Assembly: GCA_046581755.1 (NCBI GenBank)
Contig: JAYGFR010000110.1
Span: forward strand, 1 to 14,470
Direction: 5' to 3'
Origin: Nitrospinota bacterium
GTDB taxonomy: Bacteria; UBA8248
Length of the DNA: 14,470 nt
Below, piece after piece: positions 115-14,276 of this stretch. Within the stretch, counting starts at the first letter, position 1, and every line of letters starts with the position of its first letter. The notes under the pieces were generated by a model, which worked only from the letters and a program-made list of their open reading frames with translations, made no database searches and was not told where the DNA came from. Both the position numbers and the translations under genes were made by a program.

Positions 115-158
115 AAAAACAAAACCCGCCCCGCGTATTTAGCCGATGCGCGGGGCGG
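115..158 (-). terminator. Rho-independent terminator closing the minus-strand MerR operon (possibly also serving the convergent + gene)
   Basis: Inverted repeat CCGCCCCGCG (126-135) / CGCGGGGCGG (149-158). The A-rich tract at 115-124 gives a U-tail on the minus-strand transcript. Confidence 0.7.
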
Positions 159-184: not shown

Positions 185-580
185 TCAGGGACCGGATTTG
201 GCGCCGAAAATTCGCGAGCCGATGGCTCCGAGAAGCGCATCCCCCCGCTCGAAGTCGGGGATGATGCAGACATCGTTTTCCACGCCGATTTCGTGGATGG
301 AGGCGATTTCCCGCTTCTCGGCCCCCTCCTGGAGATGAATGGCGTTGTCAACGTCAATGGTGAATCCGAAATCTTTCGCGAGCCCTTCCAGGGCCGCCCA
401 TTTCTCCTGGTTCCAATCGATGGTGGAGGCCAGGCGAAATTTGAGTTTGCCTCATCAAAATCCTGCGAACCGGTAGTCGCCCCTGGAGATGGATTGGCGC
501 TTTTTCCGCGTCTTCTCGAAAAAATCGGCCTCCTGGCTGATCTCCTCCATGGCGCTCCGGGCTTCCTCGAACAGGCTCAA
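185..580 (-). CDS. Putative selenoprotein, 131 aa, with two adjacent in-frame TGA codons (residues 42-43): MSLFEEARSAMEEISQEADFFEKTRKKRQSISRGDYRFAGF-U-U-GKLKFRLASTIDWNQEKWAALEGLAKDFGFTIDVDNAIHLQEGAEKREIASIHEIGVENDVCIIPDFERGDALLGAIGSRIFGAKSGP*
   Basis: SD AGGAGG (594-589) lies 8 nt before TTG at 580. The same frame is protein-like on both sides of TGA TGA (457-452), and there is no in-frame restart right after them. A hairpin follows downstream. The stop at 187-185 precedes a terminator. The + ORF 146..703 is its codon-aligned antisense shadow. Confidence 0.7.
400..440 (-). promoter_or_regulatory. Candidate bacterial SECIS stem-loop
   Basis: The mRNA AUUUC-G-CCUGG-CC-UCCA-[CCAUCGAU]-UGGA-A-CCAGG-A-GAAAU can form 14 Watson-Crick pairs, beginning 11 nt after the second UGA. 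Folded by eye only. Confidence 0.45.
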
Positions 581-626
581 AAGGAATTCCTCCTATTTCG
601 CGTTCACGACGGGCCGGGACGCGCGA

Positions 627-755
627 TTAATGATCCTTCTTGTCTGCCGCCTGGGTGGAAGCGATTTTCTTGTCACCGGCGAGCTGGACCGTGGACGGGG
701 TGATGACTTTGACGCTCTTGAAATGAGGTCCCGCGCATCCGCAGAAGAAACACAT
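627..755 (-). CDS. 42-aa Cys-rich peptide MCFFCGCAGPHFKSVKVITPSTVQLAGDKKIASTQAADKKDH; putative metal-binding small protein
   Basis: Strong SD AAAGGAGG 6 nt before ATG at 755 and TAA at 629-627. It fills the gap between the MerR gene and the TGA-TGA gene and carries an N-terminal CxxCGC motif. Confidence 0.75.
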   Translation of the reverse strand: MCFFCGCAGPHFKSVKVITPSTVQLAGDKKIASTQAADKKDH

Positions 756-783: not shown

Positions 784-1239
784 TTATTGGGGATTTTCCT
801 CCGTTCCACCGATGGGAATCAACCGGGGGAGGTCTCCCAGGCATGTGCAAACGCTATTATCGTGGTCGGAGTAGGGGCGCCGCCCCAATTGGTCAAGCTC
901 CTCCTCGAGACTCCGCCGAAGGTCCGCGAACAGTTCGATCTGTGCGCTCAACTCGCCGATGCGCTCCTTGAGGACATTCGTCAGGACAGGGCGCGTCATG
1001 GCGCACGATTCTCCCGGCCACAGGGAGACGATGTCGGCGATTCGGCGAAGGGAAATTCCCAACTCCTTGGCCCGGCGAATGAAGATGAGGCGCTGGATGT
1101 CGGCCTCCCCGTATTGGCGGTAGCCGTTCGCGGAGCGGGGCCGTTTGGGCAAAAGCCCTCTCCCCTCGTAGTAGCGGATTGCCCTGGGCGTCAGCCCCGT
1201 GGTTTTGGACACCATTCCGATCGGCATCGTCTCGTCCAT
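784..1239 (-). CDS. MerR-family transcriptional regulator (151 aa), probable metal sensor
   Basis: MerR HTH signature IGMVSKTTGLTPRAIRYYEGRGLL…RSANGYRQY…RLIFIRRAKELGISL, a coiled-coil helix, and Cys79, His126, Cys131, Cys133. SD GGAGGAG precedes ATG at 1239; the upstream ATG at 1263 lies inside the -10 box. Confidence 0.93.
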   Translation of the reverse strand: MDETMPIGMVSKTTGLTPRAIRYYEGRGLLPKRPRSANGYRQYGEADIQRLIFIRRAKELGISLRRIADIVSLWPGESCAMTRPVLTNVLKERIGELSAQIELFADLRRSLEEELDQLGRRPYSDHDNSVCTCLGDLPRLIPIGGTEENPQ

Positions 1240-1261: not shown

Positions 1262-1293
1262 ATTCTAAACCCTTCCCCATAGGGAAGAGTCAA
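1262..1293 (-). promoter_or_regulatory. MerR-type sigma70 promoter/operator: -35 TTGACT, 20-nt spacer, -10 TAGAAT, dyad ACTCTTCCC-TATG-GGGAAGGGT
   Basis: The minus strand reads TTGACTCTTCCCTATGGGGAAGGGTTTAGAAT. An over-long spacer with a 22-bp dyad overlapping the -35 is the hallmark of MerR-activated promoters, and this one lies directly upstream of the MerR gene. Confidence 0.88.
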
Positions 1294-3651: not shown

Positions 3652-3773
3652 CTGTGGGTTTAACCGATTCGGGCGGAGGCGGGTCGGTGGCGATTCGGGT
3701 TGTGATCCCCGCCCTGGACGCTCCGCCCTGAATGAGGGTTCCTTTTCGGCACTGCCCGTGCCGTATTTCCTTT

Positions 3774-4808
3774 TTAATCCATCACGATTGCGGCGCGTCC
3801 GGTGATCAGTCCCGCTTCGAGGCGGGCATGAACCTTTTCGGCCTCCTCGAGTTTGTAGATTTCGGTGACAAAGGGCCATACCTCCCCGCGCGCCACGAGA
3901 TCGAGCGAGTCCCTGATCTCCTGTTTGGTAAACGAGCGGCTGCCCATGAGTTCAAGTTCCTTGGCGAGCATGGCTCCGGCCGAGACCCGGAAGGGCTCGG
4001 GTGTGTTGCCGCCCAGGGTGACCAGGCGGCCCCCCCGGCCGAGGGCTTCGGTGGCGGTCTCCAGGGTAGTGGGGGTGGAGACGAAATCGATCGCCACGTC
4101 GAGGCCGCGCCCCCCGGTGAACTCTGCCAGGGCCTCGGCGACGTTGTCCCTGGAGCCGTCGATGACGGCCTCGGCGCCCATCTCACGGCATTTGCCGAGT
4201 TTTTCGGGAACGATGTCCACCGCGACGACGCGGGCATGGGCCCAGCGGGCGAGCATGACCATATGAATTCCGACGCCGCCGCCCGCCCCGAATACGGCGA
4301 CCGTCTCCAGCGGGGCGATGCGCGCCCGGCGCACCACCTTGTAGGGGGTGACGATGGCGTCGCAGATGACGGCGGTCTCCGCCGGATGTGCCTTGTAGTC
4401 GAGGTTCTCGGGGATGGGGATGAAATTTCGGGCGGGCATTTTGATGTACTCGGCGTAGCCACCGTCCGCGTTTCGGCCGGTGAAGCCCGCCAGGTTCTCG
4501 CAAAGCGCCTCGCGGTCGATCCGGCACCAGTAGCAATGCCCGCAGGAAAGGTAGCAGTGCATGGTGACCGGATCGCCCTCCTTGAGGAGGGTTACGCCCT
4601 CGCCCACCGCCGAGATCTCGCCCAGCACCTCATGGCCGATGATGATGGGGTAGGTGACCGGAGCGCGCCCGGCGCGGGCATGGTGGATGGTGAGCCCGGA
4701 ACCGCAGGCCAAGACGCGGGCGACTGCCTCGCCCGGCCCGGGTACGGGATCGGGAACCTCTTCCAGCACGAAGGGGGCGCCTTTTTCGTGAAGAACCATT
4801 GCTTTCAT
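3774..4808 (-). CDS. Medium-chain (zinc-binding alcohol dehydrogenase family) oxidoreductase
   Basis: GHE motif, structural Zn motif CGHCYWCRIDREALC and Rossmann GAGGGVG. The first catalytic-Zn motif is altered (ACGSGLTIHH). Confidence 0.93.
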   Translation of the reverse strand: MKAMVLHEKGAPFVLEEVPDPVPGPGEAVARVLACGSGLTIHHARAGRAPVTYPIIIGHEVLGEISAVGEGVTLLKEGDPVTMHCYLSCGHCYWCRIDREALCENLAGFTGRNADGGYAEYIKMPARNFIPIPENLDYKAHPAETAVICDAIVTPYKVVRRARIAPLETVAVFGAGGGVGIHMVMLARWAHARVVAVDIVPEKLGKCREMGAEAVIDGSRDNVAEALAEFTGGRGLDVAIDFVSTPTTLETATEALGRGGRLVTLGGNTPEPFRVSAGAMLAKELELMGSRSFTKQEIRDSLDLVARGEVWPFVTEIYKLEEAEKVHARLEAGLITGRAAIVMD

Positions 4809-5563
4809 GGGATTTTCCTCTTGAATACGAATAAACGATGGGCGCTCCTGCGGGGCGCGCGCTCTCTCTGTCGAGAATTGTTTTTCACCAGCGGTCCGAT
4901 GGGATCGAGACGCACCCTCCGCCCTTGGACGAGCTTGAGGGTGACCTGCTTGCCGTCGGCCGAAAATGCCTTCCAGTGCTTCATCCCGAATATGGTCTGG
5001 CTACCCGTCAATGGATCGTGAAGGGGGAATTCGGCGAAAACCTTCCATCCCCCCTCCAGCGCCCCGAGGACGATTCCGTCCGTGCAGCAGGGAAACCATC
5101 TGTGCCAGGTGGAAAAATCCCGCCCGCCGGGGGCGGCCCGGAAAGAGTCCCAGTCACTGTAGGGATCGTCGAACACGAGGACGCGGGCGCCGTTCGGGTC
5201 TCCGGTCACCTTGATCCGCATGACGGCGGCCCCACCGTCGGTGTCGCTGGGCTTGTCGTGGACGATGAAGAGGGAAAACCCCTCCCGGGTGGTGACGAAA
5301 AATAGATGCGAGGTGTCCGCCTGAAGCCGGGGATGCGGGCCGTTGAACGAGTAGCGGGAAACCGCTTGGTAGGAGTAAAAATCGCTCGCCGCCTTTTCCT
5401 TCTCGTAGTAAGCATCGATGTGGCCCAGGACGTTCGCGTCAAAATCTCCGAGGCCGGGGCGGGACTCCTGGGCGACGCGGATGCGGACGGCGGCGGCGGG
5501 CGCGGGCGCGGCTTGAGGAATAACGGCCAAGATCAGGAGGATTGAGCAGGCGGTTTTTCCCAT
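4805..5563 (-). CDS. Hypothetical exported protein with signal peptide
   Basis: MGKTACSILLILAVIPQAAPAPAAA is signal-like and codon usage is coding-like. The stop overlaps the ADH start (ATGA). Alternative start at 5587. Confidence 0.75.
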   Translation of the reverse strand: MGKTACSILLILAVIPQAAPAPAAAVRIRVAQESRPGLGDFDANVLGHIDAYYEKEKAASDFYSYQAVSRYSFNGPHPRLQADTSHLFFVTTREGFSLFIVHDKPSDTDGGAAVMRIKVTGDPNGARVLVFDDPYSDWDSFRAAPGGRDFSTWHRWFPCCTDGIVLGALEGGWKVFAEFPLHDPLTGSQTIFGMKHWKAFSADGKQVTLKLVQGRRVRLDPIGPLVKNNSRQRERAPRRSAHRLFVFKRKIP

Positions 5564-5587
5564 CGGCTGGCCTTCTGCGAAACGCAT

Positions 5588-11274: not shown

Positions 11275-11564
11275 TGTTTTACTACCGGCTTGGCCGCATT
11301 CTTCAGATTCTGGCCTTGATCGACTGTGCGTTCGCGCTTTTCTTCGCGGGCCTCTTTCCCGCGTTCTCCGGGATGGAGGCACAGCTCCAGATTGTCCTCT
11401 TCGCGGGCGCCCTTTTCGCCGCCGGAAGGGTTTTCCAGAAAATGGGCGAGTCCAGGCTCCAGGCCGCGGGGGCGGCTTCCGGCGCCCAGGATTCCGGGGA
11501 TGACGCTTCGGTCTCCTCGCCGGAATCTCCACAGGGCGGGAGCCATGAAATCGAGAGCCGTTGA
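11274..11564 (+). CDS. Small two-TM hypothetical membrane protein
   Basis: TGATG coupling with the aminotransferase, two hydrophobic helices and a low-complexity tail. Confidence 0.75.
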   Translation: MFYYRLGRILQILALIDCAFALFFAGLFPAFSGMEAQLQIVLFAGALFAAGRVFQKMGESRLQAAGAASGAQDSGDDASVSSPESPQGGSHEIESR

Positions 11565-12910
11565 GCCGGCCCGGACTCCTGGCGACCTTCTCCGAGAGAT
11601 GGGACGGGCGCTACCGCGAGTACCTCGATAAAAACATCGGCCGGGTGAGCGGGGAGATACTCCCCAAGCTCGTAAAATTTCTGTTTCCGGCCTCGGCCGA
11701 GCCCACCCTGCCCGAACAGTGTCTTCCCGTTTCGTTCATCCATCTCCGCCTTCTCGGCGGGGAGTCCCTGCGCACCGTCCAGGAACGCATGGAGCCCTTG
11801 GCGTGCCTGTTCGGGATGGCGGGCGCCAGGCTCCCGACCGGAACTCTCTACCTGATTCTTACATCGCTGACCTCAACGCCCGGGAACCTGTCCTCCCTCG
11901 CGCGGGCGCAGGCGGCTTTTTTCAGCCTCCTGCTCCGCCGCCTTGCGAGAGCGATCGACCGGGGGGAGAGCGAGAGTTCGATTCGCGCCGAGTTGGCCGG
12001 GGTTTGGGACATCCGCGGCGAGGGGGCCGCCGAGGCCGCCCTTCAGGGGGCGCGAGGGTACTGGAGACGCTTCCGCGACCCACATTTGGGACTCATCCCC
12101 CTGCCGTTCGATCTGGCCGAATGGATGGCCGAGAATGGGCTGGGCGGGGAGATGGACTCGGAACTGGCGCTTTTCCCGAAGGCCGGAGGACATCCCCATC
12201 TCGAAGCCCTGGCCGGCCGCCTGGCCGCCGCCGAGGCCCTGAAGGCGGCCCTGCAATCCGGTGGGGCGGGCCAATCCGCGCTCGGGCAAACCCTCGCGGA
12301 GGTTCAGGGGAGTCTCGAAGCCGCCCTGGAGGGGATCACGCCCTGGGAGGCCGAGGCCCTCCGCCCGGTGCACCCGCTCATCTCCTCGCTGGTGGCGTGG
12401 TCCGGGCGTCTCCTGCTTTTGGGCGAGGGAGAGACGCCGGTTGCCTCCACCGGGCGCGAGAAGCTGGCCGACTGGCTGAGCGAATTATTGGGCAGTACAT
12501 CGTCCGGGAGGCTTTTGGTGGGGGGCGACACCTATCTCATCTTCGGCGCCGATGTCACCGCCGCCCCCGAGGCGGTTTCGGCCGAGTTGGCCGAGCCCGG
12601 CAAAGGAGAGAAAGACGCCGTATCTCTCCGGGTCCGCTTCGGTGGCGCCGAGAAAAGGTTCCGCTTCGATCTTTCGGCGGGGAAAGATCTGCTGGCAGCC
12701 GTCCGTCTCGCGCATCAGCCCGACATCCGGGCGGATTTGTTTCTCCGGGGAGAAAACGGTCTCTGGCGTTTCGCGGCCTCGCGCTATCTTCAGCCGGACG
12801 AGGCCCACCGCGCCGCTTGGCGCCGGCGGGTGCTTGAATACCTTTTCGAGAAATTCGGCGGGGAGGAGGACCAAATCCGACTGGAGATTCTGAAGGCCGT
12901 CAAAGGATAG
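11561..12910 (+). CDS. Hypothetical protein (449 aa)
   Basis: Long ORF with coding-like composition whose TTG start overlaps the upstream stop (TTGA). It converges tightly with the MFS gene. No recognisable motif. Confidence 0.75.
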   Translation: MSRPGLLATFSERWDGRYREYLDKNIGRVSGEILPKLVKFLFPASAEPTLPEQCLPVSFIHLRLLGGESLRTVQERMEPLACLFGMAGARLPTGTLYLILTSLTSTPGNLSSLARAQAAFFSLLLRRLARAIDRGESESSIRAELAGVWDIRGEGAAEAALQGARGYWRRFRDPHLGLIPLPFDLAEWMAENGLGGEMDSELALFPKAGGHPHLEALAGRLAAAEALKAALQSGGAGQSALGQTLAEVQGSLEAALEGITPWEAEALRPVHPLISSLVAWSGRLLLLGEGETPVASTGREKLADWLSELLGSTSSGRLLVGGDTYLIFGADVTAAPEAVSAELAEPGKGEKDAVSLRVRFGGAEKRFRFDLSAGKDLLAAVRLAHQPDIRADLFLRGENGLWRFAASRYLQPDEAHRAAWRRRVLEYLFEKFGGEEDQIRLEILKAVKG

Positions 12911-12916
12911 GAAGTC

Positions 12917-14203
12917 TCACGCCCGCACGCGCGATATCGCCGCCACGCTGATAAGCCGCGTCGCCGCCATGATGGTGAAGACCCAAAACCACCCGTTCGG
13001 CACCGCCAGCGAGAGCCAGCCGAAAAACCAGGCCTGGGCACCGCCGTACAAATAGCCATGGGCATCGAGCACGCCCGATGCCGTGGCTGCGAGTTTTCTT
13101 CCTGCCAGATCGACGGCCAGCGCCTGAATGGGAGACATGTTGACGAAAAATCCGCCCACGATGAGGAAAAAGACGGCCAGGGGGATGCTGCTCGCCGGGG
13201 CGAGGGCGATGCCCATGAGGGCCGCCCCGCTGAGAAAGCCGGAGATGACGATGACCCGTGAGCGGTTGCTGTGGAAGAATTTGTCCGAGATGTAGCCCCC
13301 GCAGATCGGCCCCCACATGTAGCCCAGGGGGTAGGCGAACGTGACCCAGCCCATCTCCCGAAGGTCCATCCCGCCGGCATGTATGTAATAGAGCGGCGCC
13401 CAAGAGACGATCCCGTAGCGCACCACATTGTCTAGCCCCTTTACCTGGCAGGCGATGAAAAAGCGCCAGTTGGAGAGCAGGTGAAGATAGGCCCGGATGC
13501 CGTGCTCACTGCCCTCGGAGGAGGATTCGGCCTCGATGGATACCTCGTCGGACTCGACATATTCCGGAAGTCCCACATCGCTGGGCTTGTCCCGCGCCAC
13601 AAAGTAAAAGACGATGCCCAGCAGCGAGATGACCAGGGGAGGGTAGCGCAACGCAGCCCGCCAGCCGTAGCTCGCCGCCACCCAGGGCGCCACGATCCAA
13701 ACGACGAGCATCGCGAAGCCCGCCGCCGTTCCCACAAGGCCCATGACCCGGCCGCGCTCCCGCCGCCCCCACCACTGGGCGAGAATCCCAATGCCGGGTG
13801 CCCAGGTGGCGGCGTTCACGAAACCGACAATGGCCCAGGGGACGAGCAGGGTGTTGATCGTGGTTCCGAAGCTGGCGATGACGTTGAATAGCCCGGTTCC
13901 GATCGCTCCCAGGAGGAGAATCCGCCTGTAGCCGTACCGCTCGGCGAAGCGGCCGTGGACGAAGTCACCGAATGCGAAGCCCCAGAACATCCAAGAGTTG
14001 ATCCATCCCGTATCGGCGCGGGTGATTCCGAGATCTGCGATGATTTCCGACTGGATGATGCTGAAGTTGAACCGCCCCATGTAGTTCATGGAGTAGAACA
14101 CGCAGTAGGCGATGAGAATCCGCCATTTCCAGGTGTGGTAGAGGGCGGACATCTCGCCGTAGGTGGCCCCCCCGTCGGCAGGGAAGTTTTCCCGGGGGTT
14201 CAT
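12917..14203 (-). CDS. MFS transporter, GlpT/UhpT (organophosphate:phosphate antiporter)-like
   Basis: 12-TM pattern. NYMGRFNFS and VVRYGIVSWAPLY retain the two Arg positions typical of GlpT. Also WWGRRERG and RDKPSDVGLP. Confidence 0.9.
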   Translation of the reverse strand: MNPRENFPADGGATYGEMSALYHTWKWRILIAYCVFYSMNYMGRFNFSIIQSEIIADLGITRADTGWINSWMFWGFAFGDFVHGRFAERYGYRRILLLGAIGTGLFNVIASFGTTINTLLVPWAIVGFVNAATWAPGIGILAQWWGRRERGRVMGLVGTAAGFAMLVVWIVAPWVAASYGWRAALRYPPLVISLLGIVFYFVARDKPSDVGLPEYVESDEVSIEAESSSEGSEHGIRAYLHLLSNWRFFIACQVKGLDNVVRYGIVSWAPLYYIHAGGMDLREMGWVTFAYPLGYMWGPICGGYISDKFFHSNRSRVIVISGFLSGAALMGIALAPASSIPLAVFFLIVGGFFVNMSPIQALAVDLAGRKLAATASGVLDAHGYLYGGAQAWFFGWLSLAVPNGWFWVFTIMAATRLISVAAISRVRA

Positions 14204-14276
14204 GCCGCCGGGTGGGCTTTCGTGAAATGGCGCAAAGATTTACTGCCTCTCGGTGACAGGGTGGTTTGGATACCGG

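Follow-up and report, generated by a model that had tools for sequence, protein, structure and literature searches.

Two adjacent in-frame UGA codons in a bacterial open reading frame (ORF) raise the question of whether both are translated as selenocysteine (Sec, U), and of what a protein carrying such a pair might do. The case considered here lies in a stretch of 14,470 nucleotides (nt) from a Nitrospinota bacterium (contig JAYGFR010000110.1 of assembly GCA_046581755.1; this whole stretch is referred to as the window), in which an earlier note, made from the sequence alone, had proposed a selenoprotein gene on the minus strand. Our comparative analysis indicates that this gene very probably encodes a real selenoprotein, and there are good grounds for thinking that both UGAs are read as Sec. 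A role in handling soft metals is favoured by a narrower margin. On balance, our preferred interpretation is that the product belongs to an unnamed family, that Sec is the predicted reading of its invariant UGA at codon 43 and, in this genome, of the UGA at codon 42 too, and that the protein is likely to handle a soft metal, such as copper. The gene and its signals are as follows.

185..580, minus strand: selenoprotein gene of 131 codons plus a TGA stop; TTG start at 580-578, stop at 187-185.
455..457, minus strand: codon 42, TGA; predicted extra selenocysteine, a lineage-specific variant.
452..454, minus strand: codon 43, TGA; predicted family-defining selenocysteine.
589..594, minus strand: ribosome-binding site AGGAGG, 8 nt 5' of the TTG start, read directly from the sequence.

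The frame consists of 41 codons, the TGA TGA pair (457-452), 88 sense codons and a TGA stop. The earlier note had described the pair in an open minus-strand frame (580..185), in the context YRFAGF-UU-GKLKF, and both the frame and the context were confirmed. It had also stated that there was no in-frame start after the TGAs, which is true up to codon 100, where a GTG would give a 32-residue product; that the ATG within TGATGA (455-453) opens only a short off-frame ORF, as is the case (about 33 codons, with no ORF of at least 40 amino acids beginning there); and that TGA is not globally recoded, consistent with its use as the stop codon of four of the eight Pfam-supported ORFs of the window and of the selenoprotein gene itself. 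The 4.2 Mb genome contains 3018 TGATGA hexamers, counting both strands, and 58 of these have at least 41 open codons before them and at least 88 after them. The bare pattern of TGATGA in an open frame is therefore not rare, and the case for a selenoprotein must rest on comparison, because it is the conservation of the pattern that is above chance. The 58 occurrences are also the point in favour of a pseudogene or a sequencing or assembly artefact, with the TGAs resulting from errors or from fresh nonsense mutations; we give this explanation next to no chance, in view of the conservation and the independent sequence data described below.

A six-frame search of 51 genomes of the phylum detected the gene in five, including the window's genome, and each match was full length, with one or two in-frame TGA codons. 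Scans of other collections recovered the same four relatives' loci and two new metagenome loci, yielding a set of seven loci (the window, L005, L006, L007, L008, L014 and L015). A single frame is kept across the UGA site at all seven. All of them have TGA as codon 43, and codon 42 varies as follows.

TGA: the window, L006 and L007.
TGC: L005.
TAC: L008.
CGT: L014.
CGC: L015.

The occurrence of TGA at codon 43 in every locus, and at codon 42 in three of the seven, argues against an artefact, as do the pooled ratios of nonsynonymous to synonymous differences (pN/pS), which are close to 0.2 both before the site (codons 2-41, 0.227) and after it (codons 44-106, 0.202). When read in the other two frames, the N-terminal nucleotides gave values of 1.42 and 1.21. 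Judging from these ratios, both halves of the gene are under purifying selection, in the selenoprotein frame only. The three genes with a UU pair, which come from three genera, have pairwise synonymous divergences of 0.54-0.98 in their N-terminal part, implying that TGA has long stood at codon 42 and has been retained there. One relative also carries an incomplete extra copy of the gene (L009, on contig C61 of genome G007, 14084-14209), corresponding to residues 90-131 only, about 850 nt 3' of its full copy. A MacB-like ORF at L010 was also considered as a selenoprotein and rejected, its continuation past the TGA looking non-coding.

The sequence of the pair itself was consistent across independent data. 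Positions 452-457 are identical in contigs from four DNA runs of four studies, one of which may be the window's own source. Contig X7 has eight differences elsewhere in 1201 bases, with the hexamer unchanged, and thus represents a different strain. The hexamer was also unchanged in RNA-library contigs from three studies; together, these contigs span positions 100-755 and, in one run, also 964-1175, and one of them, the metatranscriptome contig X16 (302-607), covers both halves of the gene and the start codon. The retention of TGATGA in independent assemblies, where the earlier note had asked for confirmation from raw reads, and the presence of TGA at codon 43 at every locus bear out its view that two neighbouring nonsense mutations or base-call errors are unlikely. 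Single-base variants were seen elsewhere in the gene: a strain variant at window position 216 in X7 (S122L), one at 480 (G34D) in a single low-depth RNA contig of X17 and one at 493 (S30P) in a short X3 contig, and such low-depth variants may be errors.

Database proteins provided a second line of comparison. A query with the read-through protein, with C in place of U, gave 24 proteins among 34 candidates, none of which reads across the UGA site: 23 begin after it, as C-terminal fragments of 82-100 amino acids, and the remaining one, P0025, has an internal deletion. In P0025 (78 residues), the N-terminal helix region is joined to approximately residue 86 and the whole Sec hairpin is missing, as the result of a natural in-frame deletion or of chimeric assembly. 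Searching 1.84 billion representatives with a profile yielded 22 matches. Cysteine (Cys) occupies position 43 in the full-length proteins P0029 (..GTGC-GKL..) and P0040 (..GGSC-GKP..), in both repeats of P0031 and in eight Deinococcus rows of alignment A10. P0029 has a Cys-rich N-terminus fused to the domain, and P0031 is a natural fusion of two family domains. Many of the other profile matches are fragments starting just after the UGA site, as would be expected if there were a UGA at this site in their genes too, and a search of shorter proteins for separate N-terminal fragments returned only the window's own 41-amino-acid ORF. Of 16 alignment rows, 15 have Cys or Sec at position 43, and G40, K45, F48, W56, H82, L83 and L116 are invariant across the Nitrospinota and Deinococcota forms. 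No Pfam or NCBIfam family (release June 2026) was matched by the selenoprotein, and Pfam returned no family for P0001, P0040, P0029 or P0026.

The homologs that the earlier note had suggested looking for were thus largely found, with UU in L006 and L007, CU in L005 and Cys at position 43 in distant full-length relatives, which are conserved on both sides of the site. Its proposal of a UU selenoprotein of an unnamed family holds for the selenoprotein, for the nameless family and for the UU pair in this genome, but not for the vicinal pair as the functional unit of the family, in which conservation of Sec or Cys is confined to position 43. The reading of the pair as an equivalent of CC fails at the level of the family, in which position 42 may be U, C, Y, R, G, A or S. 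On this comparison, the Sec-Sec pair is a lineage variant.

AlphaFold2, supplied with 21 sequences, predicted one compact alpha/beta domain, with a predicted local distance difference test (pLDDT) score of 94.6 and a predicted template modelling (pTM) score of 0.87. Residues 42-43 lie at the tip of a hairpin in this model, in the turn between strands 36-42 and 45-50. A Foldseek search against the Protein Data Bank (PDB) gave no match at E ≤ 0.001 (best value, 0.19), and a protein atlas search with the Cys homolog P0029 gave no match above 0.81. The best Z score obtained with VIA-align wide was 6.7 (CPSF C-terminal domain, phosphoglucomutase C-terminal domain and KA1 domains), which is within the tool's stated background, and no fold was assigned on this basis.

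The model and the Cys forms bear on the possibility that the first UGA mainly terminates translation, yielding a 41-residue peptide, with the full-length protein rare or selenium-dependent and the tandem UGA acting as an attenuator. Two successive SelB-dependent events at one hairpin would presumably be inefficient, many residues are tolerated at position 42, and the first 41 residues show strong conservation in their own right, all of which would suit an attenuator. Nevertheless, three genera have kept the UGA at codon 42 although their synonymous divergence is near saturation, the predicted single domain includes the N-terminal helices and strand 36-42 as integral parts, the Cys forms are single continuous proteins, and the C-terminal part has no start codon of its own before codon 100. 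We therefore consider attenuation improbable, and decoding of both UGAs as Sec remains the preferred interpretation.

Such decoding requires the appropriate machinery, the presence of which in the genome the earlier note had left to be checked. SelA (498 bits), the SelB wing domain (70.9 bits, on the same contig as SelA), tRNA-Sec (73.8 bits) and SelD (L025, on contig C268 of genome G000; 335 bits) were all found, the SelD gene having an in-frame UGA of its own (..AGGUGSK..), and SelA was found in all four of the other genomes carrying the gene. One in-frame TGA was present within 8 of 10 OsmC matches and 11 of 23 CMD matches of the genome and, together with the UGA of SelD, this suggests that its selenoproteome is very large. 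Bacterial Sec insertion also needs a hairpin within the ORF, the Sec insertion sequence (SECIS), at a fixed short distance from the UGA. Two candidates were identified downstream from the pair.

400..440, minus strand: hairpin 1, 41 nt, first SECIS candidate; starts 11 nt after UGA43 and 14 nt after UGA42.
378..397, minus strand: hairpin 2, a GC-rich stem with a GGA loop, 54 nt after UGA43; second SECIS candidate or auxiliary element.

Hairpin 1 is present in both the minimum-energy fold of the window and the consensus fold, and its stem was recovered in the folds of four of the six other sequences (L005-L008, but not L014 or L015). Over the seven sequences, 94.8% of its cells are paired, versus 38-55% for slid partners. 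When nine other Sec genes of the genome were folded and read by eye, a hairpin was found to start 11-14 nt after the UGA in seven and 20 nt after it in one, with no comparable hairpin in the ninth; spacings of 11 and 14 nt would therefore place both UGAs within the range used by this organism. The loop and stem of hairpin 2 are very like those of the SelD hairpin of the genome. Codons 62 and 64-66, over hairpin 2, are nucleotide-invariant in the seven loci, but this synonymous invariance is not significant, as a run of four was reached by 2570 of 20,000 shuffles. BSepDB lists Nitrospinota genomes with 48-54 selenoprotein genes.

The selenoprotein gene is the last of three co-directional genes, preceded by those for a MerR-family regulator and a Cys-rich peptide. 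The elements of this arrangement are listed below.

784..1239, minus strand: MerR-family regulator of the metal-sensor type, 151 amino acids; Pfam MerR_1, MerR and MerR-DNA-bind.
1262..1293, minus strand: MerR-type promoter, TTGACT, spacer of 19-20 nt, TAGAAT.
627..755, minus strand: gene for a 42-residue Cys-rich peptide (MCFFCGC...FKSVKV..P); AGGAGG at 767-762.
115..158, minus strand: terminator-like element 3' of the selenoprotein stop, with a 10-bp GC stem, a 13-nt loop and a U-rich run, in the centroid fold.

The regulator has a Cys in the sequence ..GESCAM.. and a C-terminal CTC motif. Its top NCBIfam match is CueR (TIGR02044; 77.5 bits, under the cut-off of 147.4), and its nearest solved relatives are CueR (E 2e-13), followed by MerR and CadR. 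The Cu(I) loop of CueR is C112-x7-C120; the C-terminal motif of the window regulator is C-T-C, and the phmmer alignments to CueR stop before it. The promoter spacer holds the dyad CTTCCC-N4-GGGAAG at 1287-1272, and a matching layout, which may resemble the E. coli CueR box, is found 5' of the MerR genes in L012 and L015. At each of the seven loci, the gene for the CxxCGC peptide lies upstream from that for the selenoprotein, and a profile search with the peptide recovered 37 small unnamed relatives. One of these, P0084, has a C-terminal extension with more Cys residues (..GGCCDPVCGPTTCG..). A second ORF with a GSCGCGCGC motif is present on the opposite strand in L015 (282-527, minus strand), upstream from the MerR gene, and may be a second copy of the peptide gene. 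The terminator-like element was omitted by a consensus terminator scan, its loop being longer than 8 nt. At two loci, the MerR gene is replaced by a gene for a PadR regulator with a CxCPG motif, and MacB/FtsX-type permease genes lie downstream. There were no mer genes in the window or among the neighbours in related loci; the analogy with mercury resistance (Mer) proteins drawn in the earlier note was thus not upheld, and the context points instead to a copper-type or other soft-metal regulon.

The copper P-type ATPase of the genome (L059:862-3273, on contig C75 of genome G000) has 803 amino acids and two HMA domains and scores 608.7 bits to TIGR01511. It is preceded by a putatively TetR-like ORF (L059:145-807) with a ..SSPCCGCPIGK.. 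motif. Cys-x-Cys motifs thus occur in three regulator types near these systems (CTC in MerR, CxCPG in PadR and CCGC in the TetR-like ORF). Elsewhere in the window, three long ORFs had no Pfam match (E ≤ 0.01), at 3732-5021 (plus strand, 429 amino acids), 11561-12910 (plus strand, 449 amino acids) and 4805-5587 (minus strand, 260 amino acids); some of these may be spurious frames of GC-rich DNA.

Among the Cys forms, P0040 is a Meiothermus protein, and a tblastn search placed the Cys form on 13 plasmid records (12 from Deinococcus and one from Meiothermus). In all 13, it immediately follows a gene for a heavy-metal or copper P-type ATPase, in the same orientation, this count including a D. grandis gene annotated only as "ATPase". 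A gene for a CsoR-type regulator and a small HMA gene lie alongside in 11 of the 13 records, and the vicinity frequently contains DUF305, CueP, multicopper oxidase or copper-binding genes. A Pfam check of the Meiothermus neighbour, the positive control for the HMA family, identified it as CopZ-like (PF00403, HMA, 68.1 bits). Two tandem copies of the Cys form follow the ATPase gene in Deinococcus aetherius and D. grandis (L047:3552-4411 and L062:3008-3899). These proteins are annotated as "hypothetical proteins", and the portion of the literature covered by our search contained no described function for them.

The interpretation that we favour would operate as follows. SelB, with Sec-tRNA(Sec), would dock on hairpin 1, 11 and 14 nt past UGA43 and UGA42, respectively, and decode both codons in succession. 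The two selenols would then be exposed at the beta-hairpin tip, beside the invariant Lys45, where they may bind a thiophilic metal ion or pass it on, probably with the CxxCGC peptide, which would be co-transcribed. Expression would be controlled by the CueR-like MerR regulator.

The main rival to a metal-handling function is that of a selenol/thiol redox enzyme, which, when metals or electrophiles cause stress, could for instance reduce disulfides, persulfides or oxidised thiols, with Sec43 as the nucleophile and glutaredoxin-type recycling. Most of the prokaryotic selenoproteins listed in Table 1 of PMC9312934 are redox proteins. In Meiothermus taiwanensis, a glutaredoxin gene (L045:6430-6681) starts 4 nt after the stop codon of the homolog, and in D. 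wulumuqiensis a glutaredoxin gene lies beside the CsoR gene, which may point to a partner in thiol-redox chemistry. Only one Cys is conserved in the Deinococcota forms, and the Sec/Cys-Gly/Ala-Lys motif resembles the Sec-Gly-x-Lys active-site loop of the genome's SelD, a resemblance and nothing further. Nevertheless, there is no match to a thioredoxin-like or other redox domain and no resolving residue of the CxxC type, and the linkage to metal pumps, metal sensors and a Cys-rich peptide is tight and exclusive. We consider such an enzyme unlikely, and metal handling by the selenoprotein the better-supported function.

Several observations nonetheless count against the interpretation we prefer, some concerning the function and others the decoding. 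The glutaredoxin gene adjoining the Meiothermus copy is as compatible with a redox function as with a metal function. The type of regulator varies between loci (MerR, PadR or CsoR), and the copper ATPase of the genome is on a different contig from the selenoprotein gene, making the link to metal in this genome an indirect one. A genome-wide scan for the promoter dyad gave 32 matches, versus 40 for the control, and thus no excess; a regulon shared with the copper ATPase was considered and was not shown, the lone nearby dyad match falling inside the TetR-like ORF. With regard to decoding, the covariation of hairpin 1 is weak, its score over the seven sequences being reached by 57 of 500 shuffles, with only one pair changed on both sides, and its apical loop (CCAUCGAU or CAUCGA) has no G at the first or second place, the loops of the other Sec-gene hairpins in the genome being GGA, GUA and CGUG. 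The evidence for transcription consists of contigs from RNA libraries, which may contain DNA. Finally, codon 42 is not conserved among the loci, and P0026 has Gly at position 43; given this variability, the sequences indicate that the UU pair cannot be essential to the family.

In our assessment, the selenoprotein family is new, and so is this variant of bacterial Sec decoding. The fullest version of this proposal, which we put forward only tentatively, is that it is the first bacterial protein with adjacent Sec residues, that one SECIS within the ORF serves two UGAs, that the pair acts as a vicinal diselenol clamp, and that the family has a new fold and functions in copper or soft-metal stress with the CxxCGC micro-peptide. 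Among the selenoprotein papers covered, full-text searches revealed no bacterial Sec-Sec precedent, and there was no mention of one in the passages covered of PMC13326102, PMC5029168 and PMC12013277. Whatever its function, the locus has several implications. A naturally occurring UGA-UGA, for which sister genomes supply CU, YU and RU as natural controls, would provide a direct test of the spacing tolerance of SelB and a probe of whether one SECIS reloads on successive codons. An unnamed, confidently folding family is added to the selenoproteome. All protein records examined for this gene present it in truncated form, with N-terminal fragments among them too. The comparison also draws attention to a conserved and unstudied gene of Deinococcus and Meiothermus copper operons, the function of which can be tested, since its hosts can be cultured and manipulated genetically. 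Likewise conserved and unannotated is the gene for the CxxCGC peptide, the chemistry of which is also likely to involve metals.

The closest parallel to the pair itself is found in the algal protein PDI_e, the GUGUU motif of which also has two adjacent UGAs read as Sec-Sec; the 2020 paper describing it states that this was the first protein with consecutive Sec residues (PMC7539508). PDI_e is a eukaryotic protein disulfide isomerase (PDI) with a thioredoxin fold and a SECIS outside the coding region that can serve many UGAs (PMC7539508). The window protein, by contrast, is bacterial, has an AGF-UU-GK motif and no thioredoxin-like match, and its SECIS is expected within the ORF, at a fixed short distance. 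It shares with the bacterial families with closely spaced Sec and Cys residues its bacterial origin, a dependence, predicted for the window protein, on an in-ORF SECIS, and a second chalcogen near the first (PMC1976440 and PMC9312934). These families include a rhodanese-related sulfurtransferase with UxU, noted in 2007 (PMC1976440), and the CxU, UxC, UGC and UxxU families of Table 1 of PMC9312934. No UU or CU motif was present among the 87 prokaryotic families of the 2022 table, and the window protein matches none of the domain families named in it, although a few unnamed "hypothetical" families listed there might correspond to it (PMC9312934).

Among metal-binding proteins, the Mer proteins with vicinal Cys residues (MerT, MerC and the C-terminus of MerA) resemble the window protein in having adjacent chalcogen residues and a MerR-family regulator, but there is no Pfam or NCBIfam match to MerT, MerC or MerA, the pair is not conserved, and the regulator is nearest to CueR. 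The CopZ/HMA metallochaperones would be functional analogues, being small proteins of the cytoplasm that are encoded in copper operons and expose a thiolate loop; the window protein differs from them in having no HMA match, no MxCxxC motif and another predicted topology. The proteins encoded after copA in Deinococcus and Meiothermus (e.g. WP_027883185.1 and WP_012694742.1) differ from the window protein in having Cys rather than Sec, never as a pair, in a GGSCGKP motif, and in belonging to CsoR-CopZ-CopA operons, whereas the window gene lies behind genes for MerR (PadR in relatives) and the CGC peptide. They are nonetheless its homologs over their whole length (profile E 9.6e-8; 19-29% identity for P0040 and the Deinococcus rows of A10), and they share with it the G-x-x-[C/U]-[G/A]-K..F hairpin, W56, H82, L83 and a metal-regulated context.

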